64,000 nucleotides of DNA from Escherichia coli (GTDB lineage Bacteria; Pseudomonadota; Gammaproteobacteria; Enterobacterales; Enterobacteriaceae), in NCBI RefSeq assembly GCF_011045215.1, contig NZ_CP049201.1. The stretch is one strand, 5' to 3'. How positions within the stretch are numbered: the stretch's first letter is position 1; each line of letters starts with the position of its first letter. Made by a program: the position numbers and the translations under genes. This document shows positions 2,950-60,258 of this stretch, piece by piece. A model generated the notes under the pieces. That model was not told the origin of the DNA, ran no database searches, and saw only the letters and a list, made by a program, of their open reading frames with translations.

Positions 2950-3243
2950 ATGAGTATTGATCGCACTTCGCCTCTGAAGCCTGTAAGCACCGTTCAACCG
3001 CGCGAAACCACTGACGCGCCGGTAACGAACACCCGAGCGGCAAAAACAACAGCCTCCACCAGCACCAGTGTGACGTTAAGCGACGCGCAAGCAAAACTGA
3101 TGCAACCCGGCAGCAGTGATATCAATCTTGAACGTGTCGAAGCGTTAAAACTGGCGATTCGTAACGGTGAACTAAAAATGGACACCGGCAAAATTGCCGA
3201 TGCGCTGATCAACGAAGCGCAGCAAGACTTGCAGAGTAACTGA
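2950..3243 (+). CDS. flgM: anti-sigma-28 factor FlgM
   Basis: ORF track 97 aa, [25 protein letters not shown]..., recognised as FlgM. Confidence 0.95.
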
Positions 3244-3247
3244 TCGT

Positions 3248-3664
3248 ATGACACGTCTTGCAGAGATCCTCGACCAGATGTCCGCTGTGCTTAACGATCT
3301 CAAAACGGTAATGGATCAAGAACAGCAACATCTCTCTATGGGGCAGATCAACGGCAGCCAGTTGCAATGGATTACAGAACAAAAAAGCTCACTGCTGGCG
3401 ACGCTGGATTACCTCGAACAGTTACGCAAGAAAGAACCCAATACAGCAAATAGCGTTGATATTAGTCAACGCTGGCAGGAAATTACTGTGAAAACGCAGC
3501 AACTACGCCAAATGAATCAACATAACGGCTGGTTACTGGAAGGACAGATTGAGCGCAATCAACAGGCGCTGGAAATGTTGAAACCGCATCAGGAACCGAC
3601 GCTATATGGGGCGAACGGTCAGACCTCAACAACCCATCGCGGCGGTAAAAAGATTTCGATCTGA
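3248..3664 (+). CDS. flgN: flagellar export chaperone FlgN
   Basis: ORF track 138 aa, MTRLAEILDQMSAVLNDLKTVMDQEQQHLS..., recognised as FlgN; 4 nt after flgM. Confidence 0.95.
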   Translation: MTRLAEILDQMSAVLNDLKTVMDQEQQHLSMGQINGSQLQWITEQKSSLLATLDYLEQLRKKEPNTANSVDISQRWQEITVKTQQLRQMNQHNGWLLEGQIERNQQALEMLKPHQEPTLYGANGQTSTTHRGGKKISI

Positions 3665-3673
3665 ATATTATCT

Positions 3674-3694
3674 CCGGCCTGCACTGCAGGCCGG
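3674..3694. terminator. bidirectional hairpin between convergent flgN and murJ
   Basis: inverted repeat CCGGCCTGCA/CTGCAGGCCGG in the 39-nt gap between the two convergent stop codons. Confidence 0.6.
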
Positions 3695-3703
3695 AATGCA
3701 TTG

Positions 3704-5326
<1,623 letters not shown>

Positions 5327-5348
5327 CTACCGCCAGATGTTACAGGGT

Positions 5349-6272
5349 TTATTCACTCATCGCATCGCGCCAGATCTTGTCAACGATACGTTGCGCCAGC
5401 ACGGCCTGTTCGCCGGCGGTTTGCGGAACTGTCTGATTTTGCACACATTCAATGAAGTGCCGCGCACAGCCGACAAATCCACGTTGTTCAAGAGTGCTCT
5501 GCCAACCAGGAATCGGTTTATGCACTACGCCCTGCCCGCGCTCCTCACGCCATTCGCGCATATCCGTAATGTCGATGAGCGCACCGTCAGTCACGGCCTG
5601 CACGGTTTCACGCTGACTTCCGGCACGGCGATGCATACAGGTGGTGATCTGCAAAGGACCAGCCGAAAAATGGTGCTCGGCAAACAGCATTTCGCCAGCG
5701 TCGTTAGTCAGTAGCGTACCGCCATCCAGAGAGGCTTTGCCACCCGACAACCACAGCGCGGTATCCACCACATGCAGATAATCATCCAGCAACGTGAAAT
5801 AAAGATCGTGTGGCCCGACGCTATTGCTACGATGTTTATCCATTCTTAGCGAAGCTGCGGTGGCGAGTTGCGTTTTTAACTCTCCGTAGAGTGGTGCGAA
5901 ACGACGGTTAAAACCGACCATCAACGTCAGTTTTTTCCGCGCCGCCAGTTCCACCAGCCGTTCAGCATCGCGCAGATTTTCTGCCAGCGGTTTATCGACA
6001 CAGACATGTACCCCCGCATTGAGTAACGTACTGACCACGTCAAAGTGGCTGGCGGTGCTGGAATGCACAAAAACCGCATCGCAACTGGCGGCAAGGCTGG
6101 ATAACGAATCGGCATAAGGAATGCGCCAGCTTTCACAAATTGGCAGGGCTTTCGCGCGCGTAGGCGACCAGGCTCCTTGTAACATCCAGTCAGACGCTGC
6201 CGCCAGCACCGGTAACCACGCTTTTTGCGCAATGCCGCCTAATCCCACAACGCCGATACGTAATTTTTTCAC
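5349..6272 (-). CDS. yceM: Gfo/Idh/MocA-family oxidoreductase YceM (MviM)
   Basis: ORF track 5349..6305; in-frame Val codon at residue 12 (probable GTG start) gives 307 aa KKLRIGVVGLGGIAQKAWLPV...; start choice uncertain. Confidence 0.85.
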   Translation of the reverse strand: MKKLRIGVVGLGGIAQKAWLPVLAAASDWMLQGAWSPTRAKALPICESWRIPYADSLSSLAASCDAVFVHSSTASHFDVVSTLLNAGVHVCVDKPLAENLRDAERLVELAARKKLTLMVGFNRRFAPLYGELKTQLATAASLRMDKHRSNSVGPHDLYFTLLDDYLHVVDTALWLSGGKASLDGGTLLTNDAGEMLFAEHHFSAGPLQITTCMHRRAGSQRETVQAVTDGALIDITDMREWREERGQGVVHKPIPGWQSTLEQRGFVGCARHFIECVQNQTVPQTAGEQAVLAQRIVDKIWRDAMSE

Positions 6273-6273
6273 T

Positions 6274-7516
<1,243 letters not shown>

Positions 7517-9023: not shown

Positions 9024-9671
9024 GTGAAGCTATACATTTACGATCACTGCCCTTACTGCCTCAAAGCCCGCATGATTTTCGGCCTGAAAAATATCCCCGT
9101 CGAATTACATGTTCTGCTCAACGACGACGCAGAAACACCCACCCGGATGGTCGGTCAAAAACAGGTTCCCATTCTGCAAAAAGATGACAGCCGCTATATG
9201 CCAGAAAGCATGGATATCGTTCACTATGTCGATAAACTCGACGGCAAACCGTTACTGACCGGCAAACGTTCCCCTGCAATTGAAGAGTGGCTGCGCAAGG
9301 TCAATGGCTACGCCAACAAACTGCTGTTGCCGCGTTTTGCCAAATCGGCATTTGATGAGTTTTCTACTCCCGCCGCGCGCAAATATTTCGTCGACAAGAA
9401 AGAGGCCAGCGCGGGTAATTTTGCCGACCTGCTGGCCCACTCTGACGGTCTGATTAAGAATATCAGCGATGATTTACGTGCGCTGGACAAACTGATCGTC
9501 AAACCGAACGCCGTGAATGGCGAACTTTCGGAAGATGATATTCAGCTATTTCCACTACTGCGTAATCTGACGCTGGTAGCCGGAATCAACTGGCCAAGCC
9601 GCGTTGCTGATTACCGCGATAATATGGCGAAACAGACACAAATCAATTTGTTATCCTCAATGGCGATTTAA
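9024..9671 (+). CDS. grxB: glutaredoxin 2 GrxB
   Basis: ORF track 215 aa, MKLYIYDHCPYCLKARMIFGLKNIPVELHV... with CPYC active site; apparent GTG start preceded by GGAGG. Confidence 0.93.
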   Translation: MKLYIYDHCPYCLKARMIFGLKNIPVELHVLLNDDAETPTRMVGQKQVPILQKDDSRYMPESMDIVHYVDKLDGKPLLTGKRSPAIEEWLRKVNGYANKLLLPRFAKSAFDEFSTPAARKYFVDKKEASAGNFADLLAHSDGLIKNISDDLRALDKLIVKPNAVNGELSEDDIQLFPLLRNLTLVAGINWPSRVADYRDNMAKQTQINLLSSMAI

Positions 9672-55839: not shown

Positions 55840-58800
55840 TTGAGTACCGTGGGCCAGCGCGAACGCGCCACACAGCAGCGTCTGATTCAGTTTTTTGTTG
55901 AAGATTTAGGATACCGCCATCTGAGTCACCGCACCGGGTACACCGGGAACAGCAACATCGACACTAATATACTGAGCGCGTGGCTAAAACGGCGCGGCGT
56001 TAATGATACGTTGATCACCCGGGCGTTGCGGCAACTGGATTCCGCCGCCGCCCTGGGCGAAGGCAAAAAACTCTATTACGCCAATAAAGAGGTCTATCGC
56101 CTGCTGCGTTACGGCGTGAAAGACAAAGAAGGTGCAGGCGAGCAGAACCAAACCGTGTGGCTGATTGACTGGGCCAACCCACAAGCCAATGATTTCGCCA
56201 TCGCCGATGAGGTGACGGTCAAAGGCGAGTACTGCAAGCGCCCGGATCTGGTGCTGTACGTTAACGGCATTGCGCTGGGCGTGATTGAACTTAAGCGTTC
56301 GTCAGTGCACGTCAGCGAAGGTATCCGGCAGAATCTCGATAATCAAAAGAAAACCTTTATCCGCGATTTCTTCACCACTATGCAGTTAGTGATGGCAGGC
56401 AACGATACGCAGGGCCTGCGCTACGGCACCATCGAAACCCCGGAAAAATACTATCTGGAGTGGAAAGAAGATAATCCAGGCGACTATACACATAAACTCG
56501 ACTTTCATTTAAGTCGTCTGTGTAGCAAATCCAGGCTGTTGGATATCGTCCATAATTACATTGTCTTTGATGTCGGGGTGAAAAAACTCTGCCGCCATAA
56601 TCAGTTCTTCGGCGTCGAGGCGGCTAAGCAACATATTGCCCGTCGTGAAGGCGGTATTATCTGGCACACACAGGGATCGGGTAAAAGCCTGACGATGGTC
56701 TGGCTGGCGAAGTGGATCCGTGAAAATGTGCCAAACTCCCGCGTGTTGATTGTGACTGACCGCACCGAACTGGATGAACAGATCGAAAGCGTGTTTATGG
56801 GCGTGAATGAAGATATTTATCGCACCTCCAGCGGCAACGATCTTATCGCAACGCTCAATCATCCTAACCCGTGGCTTATTTGCTCGCTGGTGCATAAATT
56901 TGGTTGTCGCAGCGAAGCTGAAGACAATGCGGCTACCGACGCCTTTATCACCGAATTACAGCAGTCCCTGACGAAAACATTCCGCGCCAAAGGCGATCTG
57001 TTTGTTTTTGTGGACGAGTGCCACCGCACACAATCCGGCAAGCTGCATAACGCCATGACTGCCATTCTGCCGGACGCCCTGTTTATCGGTTTTACCGGCA
57101 CACCGCTGATGAAGAAAGATAAGAAGAAGTCGGTTGAGGTGTTCGGCCCTTATATCCATACCTATAAATTTGATGAAGCGGTGGCCGACGGTGTGGTGCT
57201 GGATCTGCGCTACGAGGCGCGCGATATTGACCAGTATCTGACATCAGAGAAAAAGGTCGATGACTGGTTTGAAGCCAAGACTCGCGGTTTGTCGAATTTA
57301 GCCAGGACCCAGCTTAAGCAAAAGTGGGGATCAATGCAGAAGCTGCTCTCCAGCAAGTCGCGGCTGGAGCAGATCGTTAACGACATTTTGCTGGATATGG
57401 ATACCCGTCCACGCCTGATGGACGGGCGCGGCAACGCCATGCTGGTATGCAGCAGTATCTATCAAGCCTGCAAGGTTTACGAGATGTTCAGCCAGACCGA
57501 GCTGGCAGGAAAAGTAGCGATTGTGACCAGCTATCGCCCCGATGCCGCCAGCATCAAAGGCGAAGAAACGGGCGAAGGGTTAACGGAGAAACTCTCTAAA
57601 CACGCCACCTATCGTAAAATGTTGGCTGACTATTTTGAACAAAGTGAAGAGAAGGCCGCCGCACGCATTACCGAGTTCGAGCGGGAAGTGAAACAACGTT
57701 TTATTGAAGAGCCGGGGCAAATGCGCCTGCTTATCGTGGTGGACAAGCTGTTGACTGGCTTTGACGCGCCGTCCGCCACCTATCTCTACATTGATAAAAC
57801 CATGACCGACCATACGCTGTTTCAGGCGATTTGTCGGGTGAACCGGCTGGACGGTGAGGATAAAGAGTATGGCTATATTATCGATTATAAAGATCTGTTC
57901 CGTTCGCTGGATAAAGCGATTACCGATTACACCACGGGCGCGTTTGATGATTACGATCGGGACGATGTGGCCGGGTTGCTGAAAGACAGGCTGGAGCAGG
58001 CGCAACTGGATCTCGACAGCGCGCTGGAGATGGTTCGCAGCTTATGTGAGCCCGTCAAAACCCCGCGCAGCCTGCAGGACTATCAGCACTATTTTTGCGG
58101 TAAATCAGGAGAGAATCAGACTTCGTTAAACGAAAAAGAGGCGCTGCGCCTGACATTTTACCAGTGCGTCGCCCGTCTGCTACGCGCTTATGCCAGCATC
58201 GCCAATGAAATGCCGGAAGCAGGCTACACTGCCGAAGAGGTAGAGAGCATTCGCGCCGAAGTCGCTGAATTCGAAAAACTGCGCTATGAGATTAAGCTGA
58301 CCAGCGGCGATCTTCTGGATATGAAGCGCTTTGAACCCGCTATGCGTCATTTACTGGATATGTATGTTCGCGCCGATGGTAGCGAAGTGCTGATGGATTT
58401 TGAAGAGTTAAGTCTGATTGAACTGATTGTCGAGAAAGGCTTGGCGGCGACCGTCGCCCTGCCGGATGATATCCGTAATAATCAGGATGCGATGGCGGAA
58501 ACCATCGAAAACAACGTGCGCAAAACCATCGTGGATGAAAACCCGGTTAACCCAAAATACTATGGACGCATGTCGCAGCTGCTGGATGAACTGATTACCC
58601 TTCGCCGACAAAATGCGCTCAATTATCAGCAGTATCTGGAACGTATCCGCGATTTGTGTAAACAGGTCATCCGCCCGGAGCAAACCGCCGGAGCGTGCTA
58701 CCCTGCCACCATGGATACACAAGCAAAGCGCGCCTTCTATGACAACTTCGGCCACGACGAGGTACTGGCGACCCGCATAGATACGACAATTCGCTATACC

Positions 58801-58935
58801 AAAAGGGCAGAGTGGATTGGCGATCGTTTTAAAGAACGGGAAATTGCCAACGCATTACGTGAAGAGACCGCCAGCTATAATATTGATATTGATGAGGTGA
58901 TAGCGCTTGCCCGTCAGCAGAAGGAATATCACTGA
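55840..58935 (+). CDS. hsdR: type I restriction enzyme endonuclease/translocase subunit HsdR
   Basis: ORF track 1031 aa; nuclease-like DLVLYVNGIALGVIELK and helicase DECH (FVFVDECHRTQ) motifs read; starts 19 nt after darG. Confidence 0.92.
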   Translation: MSTVGQRERATQQRLIQFFVEDLGYRHLSHRTGYTGNSNIDTNILSAWLKRRGVNDTLITRALRQLDSAAALGEGKKLYYANKEVYRLLRYGVKDKEGAGEQNQTVWLIDWANPQANDFAIADEVTVKGEYCKRPDLVLYVNGIALGVIELKRSSVHVSEGIRQNLDNQKKTFIRDFFTTMQLVMAGNDTQGLRYGTIETPEKYYLEWKEDNPGDYTHKLDFHLSRLCSKSRLLDIVHNYIVFDVGVKKLCRHNQFFGVEAAKQHIARREGGIIWHTQGSGKSLTMVWLAKWIRENVPNSRVLIVTDRTELDEQIESVFMGVNEDIYRTSSGNDLIATLNHPNPWLICSLVHKFGCRSEAEDNAATDAFITELQQSLTKTFRAKGDLFVFVDECHRTQSGKLHNAMTAILPDALFIGFTGTPLMKKDKKKSVEVFGPYIHTYKFDEAVADGVVLDLRYEARDIDQYLTSEKKVDDWFEAKTRGLSNLARTQLKQKWGSMQKLLSSKSRLEQIVNDILLDMDTRPRLMDGRGNAMLVCSSIYQACKVYEMFSQTELAGKVAIVTSYRPDAASIKGEETGEGLTEKLSKHATYRKMLADYFEQSEEKAAARITEFEREVKQRFIEEPGQMRLLIVVDKLLTGFDAPSATYLYIDKTMTDHTLFQAICRVNRLDGEDKEYGYIIDYKDLFRSLDKAITDYTTGAFDDYDRDDVAGLLKDRLEQAQLDLDSALEMVRSLCEPVKTPRSLQDYQHYFCGKSGENQTSLNEKEALRLTFYQCVARLLRAYASIANEMPEAGYTAEEVESIRAEVAEFEKLRYEIKLTSGDLLDMKRFEPAMRHLLDMYVRADGSEVLMDFEELSLIELIVEKGLAATVALPDDIRNNQDAMAETIENNVRKTIVDENPVNPKYYGRMSQLLDELITLRRQNALNYQQYLERIRDLCKQVIRPEQTAGACYPATMDTQAKRAFYDNFGHDEVLATRIDTTIRYTKRAEWIGDRFKEREIANALREETASYNIDIDEVIALARQQKEYH

Positions 58936-59651
58936 TGCCAATCATGCAAATAGGCTCGTTACACTTGCTGGTCAACCGTAAGGCGATTAAGAATCTGCAT
59001 ATCAGCGTGCTGCCGCCTGATGGCAAAGTCCGCGTTTCAGCGCCGGAACATATGACGGAGACGGCGATTCGTATGGCGGTTGCTTCACGCTTTCGCTGGA
59101 TCAGAAAACAGCAGCAGGATTTCGCCAGACAGCCTCGTCAATCAGAGAGGGAAATGGTCAGCGGAGAGTGCCACTATCTTTGGGGCCGAAGATATCGCCT
59201 ACTTGTGATTGAGCGTCACGGGCGTCACGAAGTAAAAGTTGCGGGAAATAATAAGCTCCAGCTTTATGTTCAACCGGGAACCCGTGATGAAAATAAGGCA
59301 TTGGCGTTAAGTGAATTTTATCGACATGAACTAAAACAGCAGGTGGCTAAGCTTCTACCTGAATGGCAAGACCGAATCGGTGTTCCCCTAACATTCTGGG
59401 GCATCAAAAAGATGAAAACCTTTTGGGGCACCTGTAACACTACAACAAAACGAATCTGGCTCAATCTGGAGCTAATTAAGAAGCCGCCGGAGTGTCTGGA
59501 GTATATTCTGGTGCATGAACTGGTTCATCTTCTGGAACGTCACCATAATGCTCGCTTCCGGTTGCATATGGATCGGTTTATTCCTGACTGGCGTGAGCGT
59601 CGGGATTTGTTAAATAATATGCCGTTAGCGTTTGAGGCATGGGAGTATTGA
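58935..59651 (+). CDS. DUF45/YgjP-like zinc metallopeptidase-domain protein
   Basis: ORF track 238 aa; HEXXH motif ILVHELVHLLERHH; ATG overlaps the hsdR stop by 1 nt. Confidence 0.8.
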   Translation: MPIMQIGSLHLLVNRKAIKNLHISVLPPDGKVRVSAPEHMTETAIRMAVASRFRWIRKQQQDFARQPRQSEREMVSGECHYLWGRRYRLLVIERHGRHEVKVAGNNKLQLYVQPGTRDENKALALSEFYRHELKQQVAKLLPEWQDRIGVPLTFWGIKKMKTFWGTCNTTTKRIWLNLELIKKPPECLEYILVHELVHLLERHHNARFRLHMDRFIPDWRERRDLLNNMPLAFEAWEY

Positions 59652-60258
59652 TTGAGCCTGTAACTGTTTTTTGTCCATAAATTAACCTTCATTTGATGCT
59701 GGATAGAACATATCAAAATCAGACAATTACACAAATCTATGTACAGGCTCAACTCCTGCCATGGAACGTAGTACTCACCAATAAGTAAGCATCAATACGG
59801 CGCTCCGTTAACGCTTACTAGCATGGTTATCTCCTTAAAAAATTGAGGCGACAACTATGCTGACACAGGGGGTTACTCACCGATCTCCTTCACGGTAATA
59901 CGCAGTTCTTCAGAACCCGCCTCCGATACCAGCCTGGCGGTCGCCCCGGCGCAAGCAAAATAAATCGACCATTGTCAGACTGCGATCGTTCGGATGCCCC
60001 GCCACCGACGCATCAGTATGAGTTAACCGAAACGATACAAAATTGCCTGAGAATCATTACGCTGGCTGATGGAAGGCACACCAAAAGCCTCTGCACAGAA
60101 CGATGTTCGGCAACAACAGAAACATGATTGCGTTCATGGCAATAGTCATTCGTACCGTTACAGGCGGTATTGATTTATTACAGACAAGCGGTACATATAT
60201 GTACCGCTTGGTTAAGTAAAAAAACAGATATGAACGCTATTATGTTCATTCTACTTTA

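Follow-up and report, generated by a model that had tools for sequence, protein, structure and literature searches.

A conserved-pairing palindrome downstream of a plasmid-derived ail gene in Escherichia coli is a candidate transcript-end stem-loop

Protective stem-loops occur at the processed 3' ends of Rho-terminated transcripts, as mapping of 3' ends in E. coli has established. Other extragenic hairpins act more directly on transcription. REP hairpins in the 3' untranslated regions (3'UTRs) of E. coli genes that carry no canonical U-tract are partial, partly Rho-dependent terminators and mRNA stabilisers, also between converging genes (bioRxiv 10.64898/2026.03.23.713779). At the bidirectional terminators of converging genes, RNA polymerase collisions cannot be positioned without a stem-loop in the nascent RNA (Wang et al., bioRxiv 10.1101/2022.10.23.513370), and overlapping bidirectional terminators between converging genes are known from the work of Ju et al. 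2019, which we take here as it is presented in the citing preprint (bioRxiv 10.1101/2022.10.23.513370). Inverted repeats are also subject to a mutational process of their own: template switching at E. coli quasi-palindromes makes imperfect inverted repeats more perfect, and compensatory changes in such repeats can thus arise without selection (PMC7202029). Here we describe a perfect palindrome downstream of an ail gene which, like the protective stem-loops of Rho-terminated transcripts, is a strong hairpin with no U-tract shortly after a stop codon. From its sequence and that of its relatives, we consider it to be a stem-loop acting at the RNA level at transcript ends, as a read-through barrier and mRNA stabiliser that is now partly a relic, with a probability of about 50%.

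A preliminary description of this DNA had reported a 24-bp palindrome, AAGCGGTACATATATGTACCGCTT, at positions 60186-60209 of the window, by which we mean the whole 64-kb stretch that was analysed. Re-reading of the bases confirmed that this sequence is present and self-complementary, and showed that the perfect symmetry reaches one base further on each side, giving the 26-bp palindrome CAAGCGGTACATAT/ATATGTACCGCTTG (Table 1). Allowing up to three mismatches, a single copy was found in the window, where the chance expectation is 0, and no other perfect palindrome with arms of at least 8 nt occurs in the 64 kb. An arm of 13 was reached in only one of 200 dinucleotide-preserving shuffles. When folded as RNA and compared with shuffled controls, the palindrome had a predicted energy of -17.5 kcal/mol in the minus sense (z -5.6) and -18.1 kcal/mol in the plus sense (z -6.6); the corresponding value for single-stranded DNA was -12.5 kcal/mol. 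The genome-wide search for copies that the preliminary description had proposed found none beyond the ail module described below. Among 100,044 species representatives, the 20-mer core had one exact match, inside a Noviherbaspirillum open reading frame with different flanks, which we take to be a chance occurrence. Phage sequences gave no match to the palindrome, a search of Rfam 15 returned chance-level matches only (for instance 19 bits for mir-4536, where the threshold is 76), and no promoter-like site was predicted at the palindrome.

The palindrome lies close to the 3' ends of two reading frames. The minus-strand gene had been assigned to the Ail/Lom family, an identity borne out by its match to Pfam PF06316 (E 3.5e-23) and by the same label on annotated E. 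coli and plasmid homologues. Its reading frame ends with tandem TAA TAA stops, and the distance to the palindrome, previously put at about 50 nt, measures 48 nt from the stop codon at 60261-60259. On the other side, 11 nt from the palindrome, is the TGA stop codon (60171-60173) of a relaxase remnant, which is 69-71% identical in amino-acid sequence to the relaxases of IncI-type plasmids (tblastn, E ~1e-15) and whose DNA matches land at the 3' ends of annotated relaxase genes. The remnant contains one internal in-frame stop and has no gene sequence upstream; therefore, it is a pseudogene fragment. Because the remnant is on the plus strand and ail on the minus strand, the palindrome is situated between converging reading frames. 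This converging layout was already present in the plasmid ancestor, as seen on metagenome contig L019 and plasmid pUMNK88_Hly (L008), whereas all that the window has left of the relaxase partner is a 135-bp fragment.

Table 1. Features in and around the palindrome, in window coordinates
Feature	Coordinates	Strand	Basis or detail
26-bp perfect palindrome	60185..60210	either strand	13-bp stem, realistically 11 bp with a 4-nt loop
Ail/Lom (PagC-like) outer-membrane beta-barrel gene, 185 aa	60259..60816	-	Pfam PF06316, PF13505; homologue annotation
Sigma-70-like promoter candidate for ail (TTGACA, 17-nt spacer, CATCAT)	60858..60886	-	10/12 consensus positions; consensus match only
AU-rich hairpin AGAATGAAC / GTTCAT-A-TCT, then G and a T7 run	60218..60252	-	sequence; fold ~-7 kcal/mol
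Pseudogene remnant, last 45 codons of a MOBP TraI/NikB-type relaxase of IncI-type plasmids	60039..60173	+	tblastn, DNA matches
Mobile ail module (~1 kb)	59900..61139		97-98% identity with E. coli UMNF18 and 52F4
IS66-family end scar (ISEc23/IS682-like)	~59756-59820		thousands of copies under annotated IS66 transposase features
IS3-family end scar	~59818-59905		thousands of E. coli copies under annotated IS3 transposase features

Between the ail stop codon and the palindrome is a second, weaker element that the preliminary description had not mentioned, an AU-rich hairpin followed by a T7 run at 60218-60224 (minus sense). We consider this hairpin and its T7 run the probable main intrinsic terminator of ail, judging from their sequence; the terminator scan was silent on it because its stem is bulged and GC-poor. 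On the plus strand an A7 run precedes the same hairpin, and given this run the terminator may be active in both directions. Across alleles the T-run is constant in all, and the AU stem is 90% paired, disrupted in some alleles and without any compensatory change. In the ail sense the palindrome starts 7 nt past this element.

We recovered four alleles of the palindrome from chromosomes, plasmids, and metagenome and Logan contigs, of which only three or four are independent; their sequences are given in the ail sense. Allele A, found in the window and in all chromosomal copies, is the perfect palindrome CAAGCGGTACAT-AT-ATGTACCGCTTG. Allele A', from one metagenome contig (L014), has an A to G change in the 5' arm (GGTGCAT). 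Allele B, CAACCGATACAT-T-ATGTATCGGTTG, occurs on plasmids and on several metagenome or Logan contigs, and allele C, CAACCGGTACATT-(15 nt)-AATGTATCGGTTG, comes from a Logan contig (L005) whose ail gene is 86% identical. A pattern scan of metagenomes yielded six true homologues, including one new allele, together with two chance matches (L017 and L020).

Pairing is intact at 12 of the 12 shared stem pairs in every aligned sequence. Substitutions affected both partners in two of these pairs (G-C to C-G and G-C to A-T); where only one partner was replaced, which happened twice, the result is a G·U pair in the ail sense. Alleles A and B differ by four substitutions among the 24 stem positions, which are exactly two compensating pairs; by our own calculation, C(12,2)/C(24,4) x 1/9, such an outcome has a chance probability of ~7e-4. 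Between these two alleles the stem has diverged by ~17%, the flanking non-coding DNA is 85-90% identical and the ail coding sequence is on average ~96% identical. The stem has thus diverged about as much as its flanks, so that it is the pairing, and not the sequence, which is conserved. The centre varies among alleles, from a perfect palindrome to 1 nt and 15 nt. We read this combination in the aligned sequences as characteristic of an extruded hairpin and unlike a dimer binding site with fixed geometry. A strand preference would rest on two G·U events and, with a prior of 50% for each, has p = 0.25.

More distant ail homologues have unrelated strong hairpins 3' of the gene, which in two cases (L006 and L035) are without a U-tract and in another (L036) form a canonical terminator. 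In L006, whose ail homologue has 79% identity, the U-tract-less hairpin CCGTGAAGGAGAGA...TCTCTCCTTCACGG spans 1970-2010; in L035 (59% identity) the hairpin, TCGACATATTCC...GGAATATGTCGA, is at ~1250-1285. L006 also carries a GGTACATAT-TACCG stretch that is possibly a degraded arm, and it has no alignable homology beyond the ail gene. We rejected a shared ancestral ail terminator, as the 3' ends of distant PagC-like genes are unrelated, comprising an overlapping convergent LysR gene, a canonical terminator and other hairpins. In L021, which holds a partial ail homologue (90%), the downstream sequence is unrelated.

The palindrome region was present in 25 of 5,426 complete E. coli genomes, mostly of porcine ETEC, nearly always as a single copy and always with ail. 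Its chromosomal sites differ, being either a pheV-type island by a phosphoethanolamine transferase gene or a position beside CDI/toxin genes and insertion sequences, and the exact left junction of the window was found in none of these ail-module genomes. The same ail gene, at 95-99.5% protein identity, resides on ~11 conjugative plasmids (IncI1 or IncI-gamma/K1); those that were inspected have it downstream of the relaxase gene. The simplest layout is that of metagenome contig L019, where an intact relaxase gene is followed by the hairpin and then by ail in the opposite orientation; we take this layout as ancestral on the strength of its gene order. In IncI plasmids that have no ail, homology to the window stops exactly after the relaxase stop, and other cargo is found there. 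Taken together, the plasmid and chromosome layouts and the end of homology at the relaxase stop thus place the palindrome, as we interpret these alignments, as the first element of an ail cargo module that was carried by plasmids before it became chromosomal, together with the relaxase tail. The ail gene of the window is therefore plasmid-derived cargo that still carries an IncI-type relaxase tail, and it documents a move from plasmid to chromosome of a putative virulence-type outer-membrane protein gene.

The same relaxase tail recurs elsewhere. On IncI-type plasmids the terminal 60-130 bp of the relaxase gene are present two or three times in direct orientation (at 4154-4285 and 4999-5064 in L008; at 9378-9509, 6420-6551 and 5644-5710 in L011), with one copy per junction between the downstream cargo modules (vapBC, HTH+PIN, DUF4917 and ail). 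The tail looks like the recombination anchor of a cargo-accretion hotspot on IncI-type plasmids, and seems to be a recurrent junction between cargo modules there. Just upstream of vapB in pUMNK88_Hly, at 4338-4377, is a 17-bp perfect inverted repeat (GATGTGATATTTGATTC, 6 nt, GAATCAAATATCACATC), which is probably the VapB operator.

The surroundings of the module in the window are a mosaic. The back-to-back end scars of IS66- and IS3-family elements (59756-59905) form its left border. The stretch from there to the relaxase remnant (59900-60039) is common to UMNF18 and 52F4 and is annotated in UMNF18 as a 59-aa hypothetical protein; its first part (59900-59997) also occurs in an E. coli EC5654 locus that lacks ail. 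Outside the scars, about 100 bp at 59654-59755, right after an M48/YgjP-like gene, are 95% identical to L008 6073-6174 on the far side of ail; they are bounded by the 11-bp inverted repeats TTGAGCCTGTA and TACAGGCTCAA, and may be a miniature mobile element or a junction relic. Further upstream (55840-59651) is a defence island with a type I restriction R subunit and the M48/YgjP-like metallopeptidase. In the near-identical EC5654 locus (L003), DarT/DarG precede the restriction and metallopeptidase genes, and a cdiA-CT/immunity region directly follows them, at the place where the window has the ail module. On the other flank, at 61082-62208 on the minus strand, a 298-aa open reading frame containing a PT-VENN pre-toxin domain precedes a hydrophobic one of 77 aa; this pair, which adjoins the ail module, resembles the orphaned C-terminus of a polymorphic toxin together with its immunity gene. 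Several porcine ETEC chromosomes (L001, at 3203-5583; L023, L026, L028 and L029) have a phosphoethanolamine transferase (sulfatase-family) gene downstream of ail on the same strand, and in UMNF18 this gene is interrupted by IS1.

The preliminary description had suggested that the palindrome may be a binding site for a dimeric protein or a recombination target. An operator for a dimeric DNA-binding protein would account for the perfect dyad symmetry over 26 bp, and symmetric changes in both arms could in principle follow a shift in regulator specificity. However, neither the spacing of the half-sites nor their sequence behaves as an operator should: the spacing is not conserved, given the variable centre, and the half-sites are conserved no better than the flanks, with both arms substituted at two positions. 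Moreover, the site is 3' of both genes, where no promoter is predicted, no regulator gene travels with it consistently across chromosomal and plasmid contexts, and a second copy is absent from the window and from the carrier plasmid regions that were examined. With the arm changes being compensatory as well, we regard an operator as very unlikely. Even less credit goes to the palindrome itself being a Rho-independent terminator of ail or of the relaxase operon, which is extremely unlikely. A strong stem-loop of 11-13 bp (~-18 kcal/mol) at the 3' end of both genes would suit such a role, but the stem is followed by UCUGUAAUAAAUC in the ail sense and by GUUAAGUAAAAAAAC in the relaxase sense, with a U-tract absent on both strands, and the terminator scan made no call there. 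The U7 tract that does exist lies upstream of the palindrome and belongs to the neighbouring AU hairpin. It had been noted correctly that no T-run follows the palindrome on either strand, and the view that this is not an intrinsic terminator holds for the canonical type. A signal read at the DNA level has somewhat more to recommend it, either as a structure-specific site at the relaxase-tail cargo hotspot or as a single-strand hairpin in conjugative transfer. The palindrome is 11 nt from the end of plasmid backbone homology, a copy of the relaxase tail flanks each cargo module downstream of the relaxase, the hairpin would form in single-stranded DNA too, and one arm weakly resembles the arm of the Rci sfx site, (C)CGGTAC. 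Against this, other cargo junctions with the same relaxase tail have unrelated sequences in place of this hairpin, and the backbone homology breaks at the relaxase stop and not inside the palindrome. The plasmids' own oriT repeat, GTTTTGTTGAACCGCCATC/GATGGCCGTTCAACAAAAC, is upstream of mobA and unrelated, and the palindrome, which follows the relaxase stop, is on the wrong side of the relaxase operon to be an oriT. With the Rci sfx site (a 7-bp spacer, GTGCCAA, and the right arm TCCGGTACGTGG) the palindrome shares the CGGTAC core only; a scan of the window and of 50 kb of pUMNK88_Hly gave no sfx match within 3 mismatches, and no rci annotation is present in the 60 kb examined of the 65.5-kb pUMNK88_Hly record. 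As the palindrome also has no other copies, a recombination or transfer signal is quite unlikely. Its narrower form, in which the hairpin is a structure-specific DNA signal tied to the relaxase-tail hotspot and is read single-stranded in transfer or used by the recombination that captured the ail module, would have at best a slim outside chance on the sequence at hand. Two further site types were considered and rejected. Xer sites consist of 11-bp XerC and XerD arms around a 6-8-bp centre; by our own reading the best alignment covers ~13 of the 22 arm positions, a match that we calculate should arise over 100 times by chance alone in 64 kb, and the 15-nt centre of the L005 allele is incompatible with such a site. 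An attC site pairs an inverse core, RYYYAAC, with a core, GTTRRRY, and has bulged bases; in the ail sense ACTTAAC fits the inverse core, but by our own reading GTTRRRY and the bulges are absent.

The main rival to a transcript-end hairpin, and a serious one, is that this quasi-palindrome in non-coding DNA has no function, and that its arms have been kept complementary and perfected by template switching during replication and not by selection. Such a process could yield the seemingly compensatory pairs in one event (PMC7202029), and it would explain why symmetry in the allele of the window is unbroken even across the centre, something that an RNA hairpin does not need. The stem also changes in sequence at about the rate of its flanks, and the whole region is a mosaic of relics, with its relaxase fragment and insertion-sequence scars. 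On the other hand, the stem persists in three lineages with different loops, and a 15-nt loop would lower the efficiency of template-switch correction; the intermediate states of the stem are G·U pairs instead of random mismatches; and other ail homologues have strong 3' hairpins at the equivalent place. We hold a functionless origin to be possible though doubtful.

The reading that we prefer remains the transcript-end stem-loop, in which we infer that the hairpin forms in RNA and affects termination or stability. Since a U-tract is absent 3' of the stem, the stem alone cannot terminate transcription by the intrinsic mechanism. Instead, for those ail transcripts that run past the weak AU-hairpin/U7 terminator, the palindrome hairpin would be a strong pause or folding barrier that limits read-through. 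On the plasmid, such read-through would be antisense to the relaxase, and in other chromosomal copies it would enter downstream genes. In the ail sense the palindrome comes after a plausible terminator, so that many ail transcripts may never include it. For relaxase transcripts, the hairpin would be in the 3'UTR, 11 nt past the stop codon and ahead of the A7/AU-hairpin/T-rich element, where it could block 3'-to-5' exonucleases and stabilise the mRNA. As the relaxase in the window is reduced to its 135-bp remnant, any role on that side would be a relic here. If the hairpin works as proposed, it would add one more case to the stem-loops that lack a U-tract and yet shape the ends of transcripts where genes converge. 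The palindrome alone is of little importance, and its plasmid-derived context is the more useful by-product of this analysis.

Among described systems, the palindrome most invites comparison with REP-type 3'UTR hairpins, with which it shares being stable, extragenic, devoid of a canonical U-tract, 3' of genes and between converging genes; the dual role proposed for it, limiting read-through and blocking 3' exonucleases, is likewise that of REP hairpins. Unlike REP/BIME elements, which have many dispersed copies, it is single-copy and confined to the ail module, it is perfect and not imperfect, and its sequence is unrelated to theirs. With overlapping bidirectional terminators, insofar as these are set out in the preprint that cites them, it has in common that it is symmetric, is predicted to form on both strands and occupies a short gap between converging reading frames. 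Unlike those terminators as presented there, it is not flanked by an A-tract and a U-tract, the plus-strand A7 being downstream and thus on the wrong side, and one of its converging genes is in the window a remnant only. By the same account, the layout of an overlapping bidirectional terminator is better matched by the weak AU hairpin next to the palindrome (A7, hairpin, T-rich). The palindrome also resembles the quasi-palindrome hotspots of template switching (PMC7202029), which are likewise short, with arms that change together and tend to perfection; unlike the functional systems, however, such a hotspot is a mutational mechanism and is compatible with any functional reading of the palindrome. 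Together, these comparisons place the palindrome outside the REP family, Rfam and the canonical intrinsic terminators, and suggest that it would work like a REP-type or converging-gene 3' hairpin.
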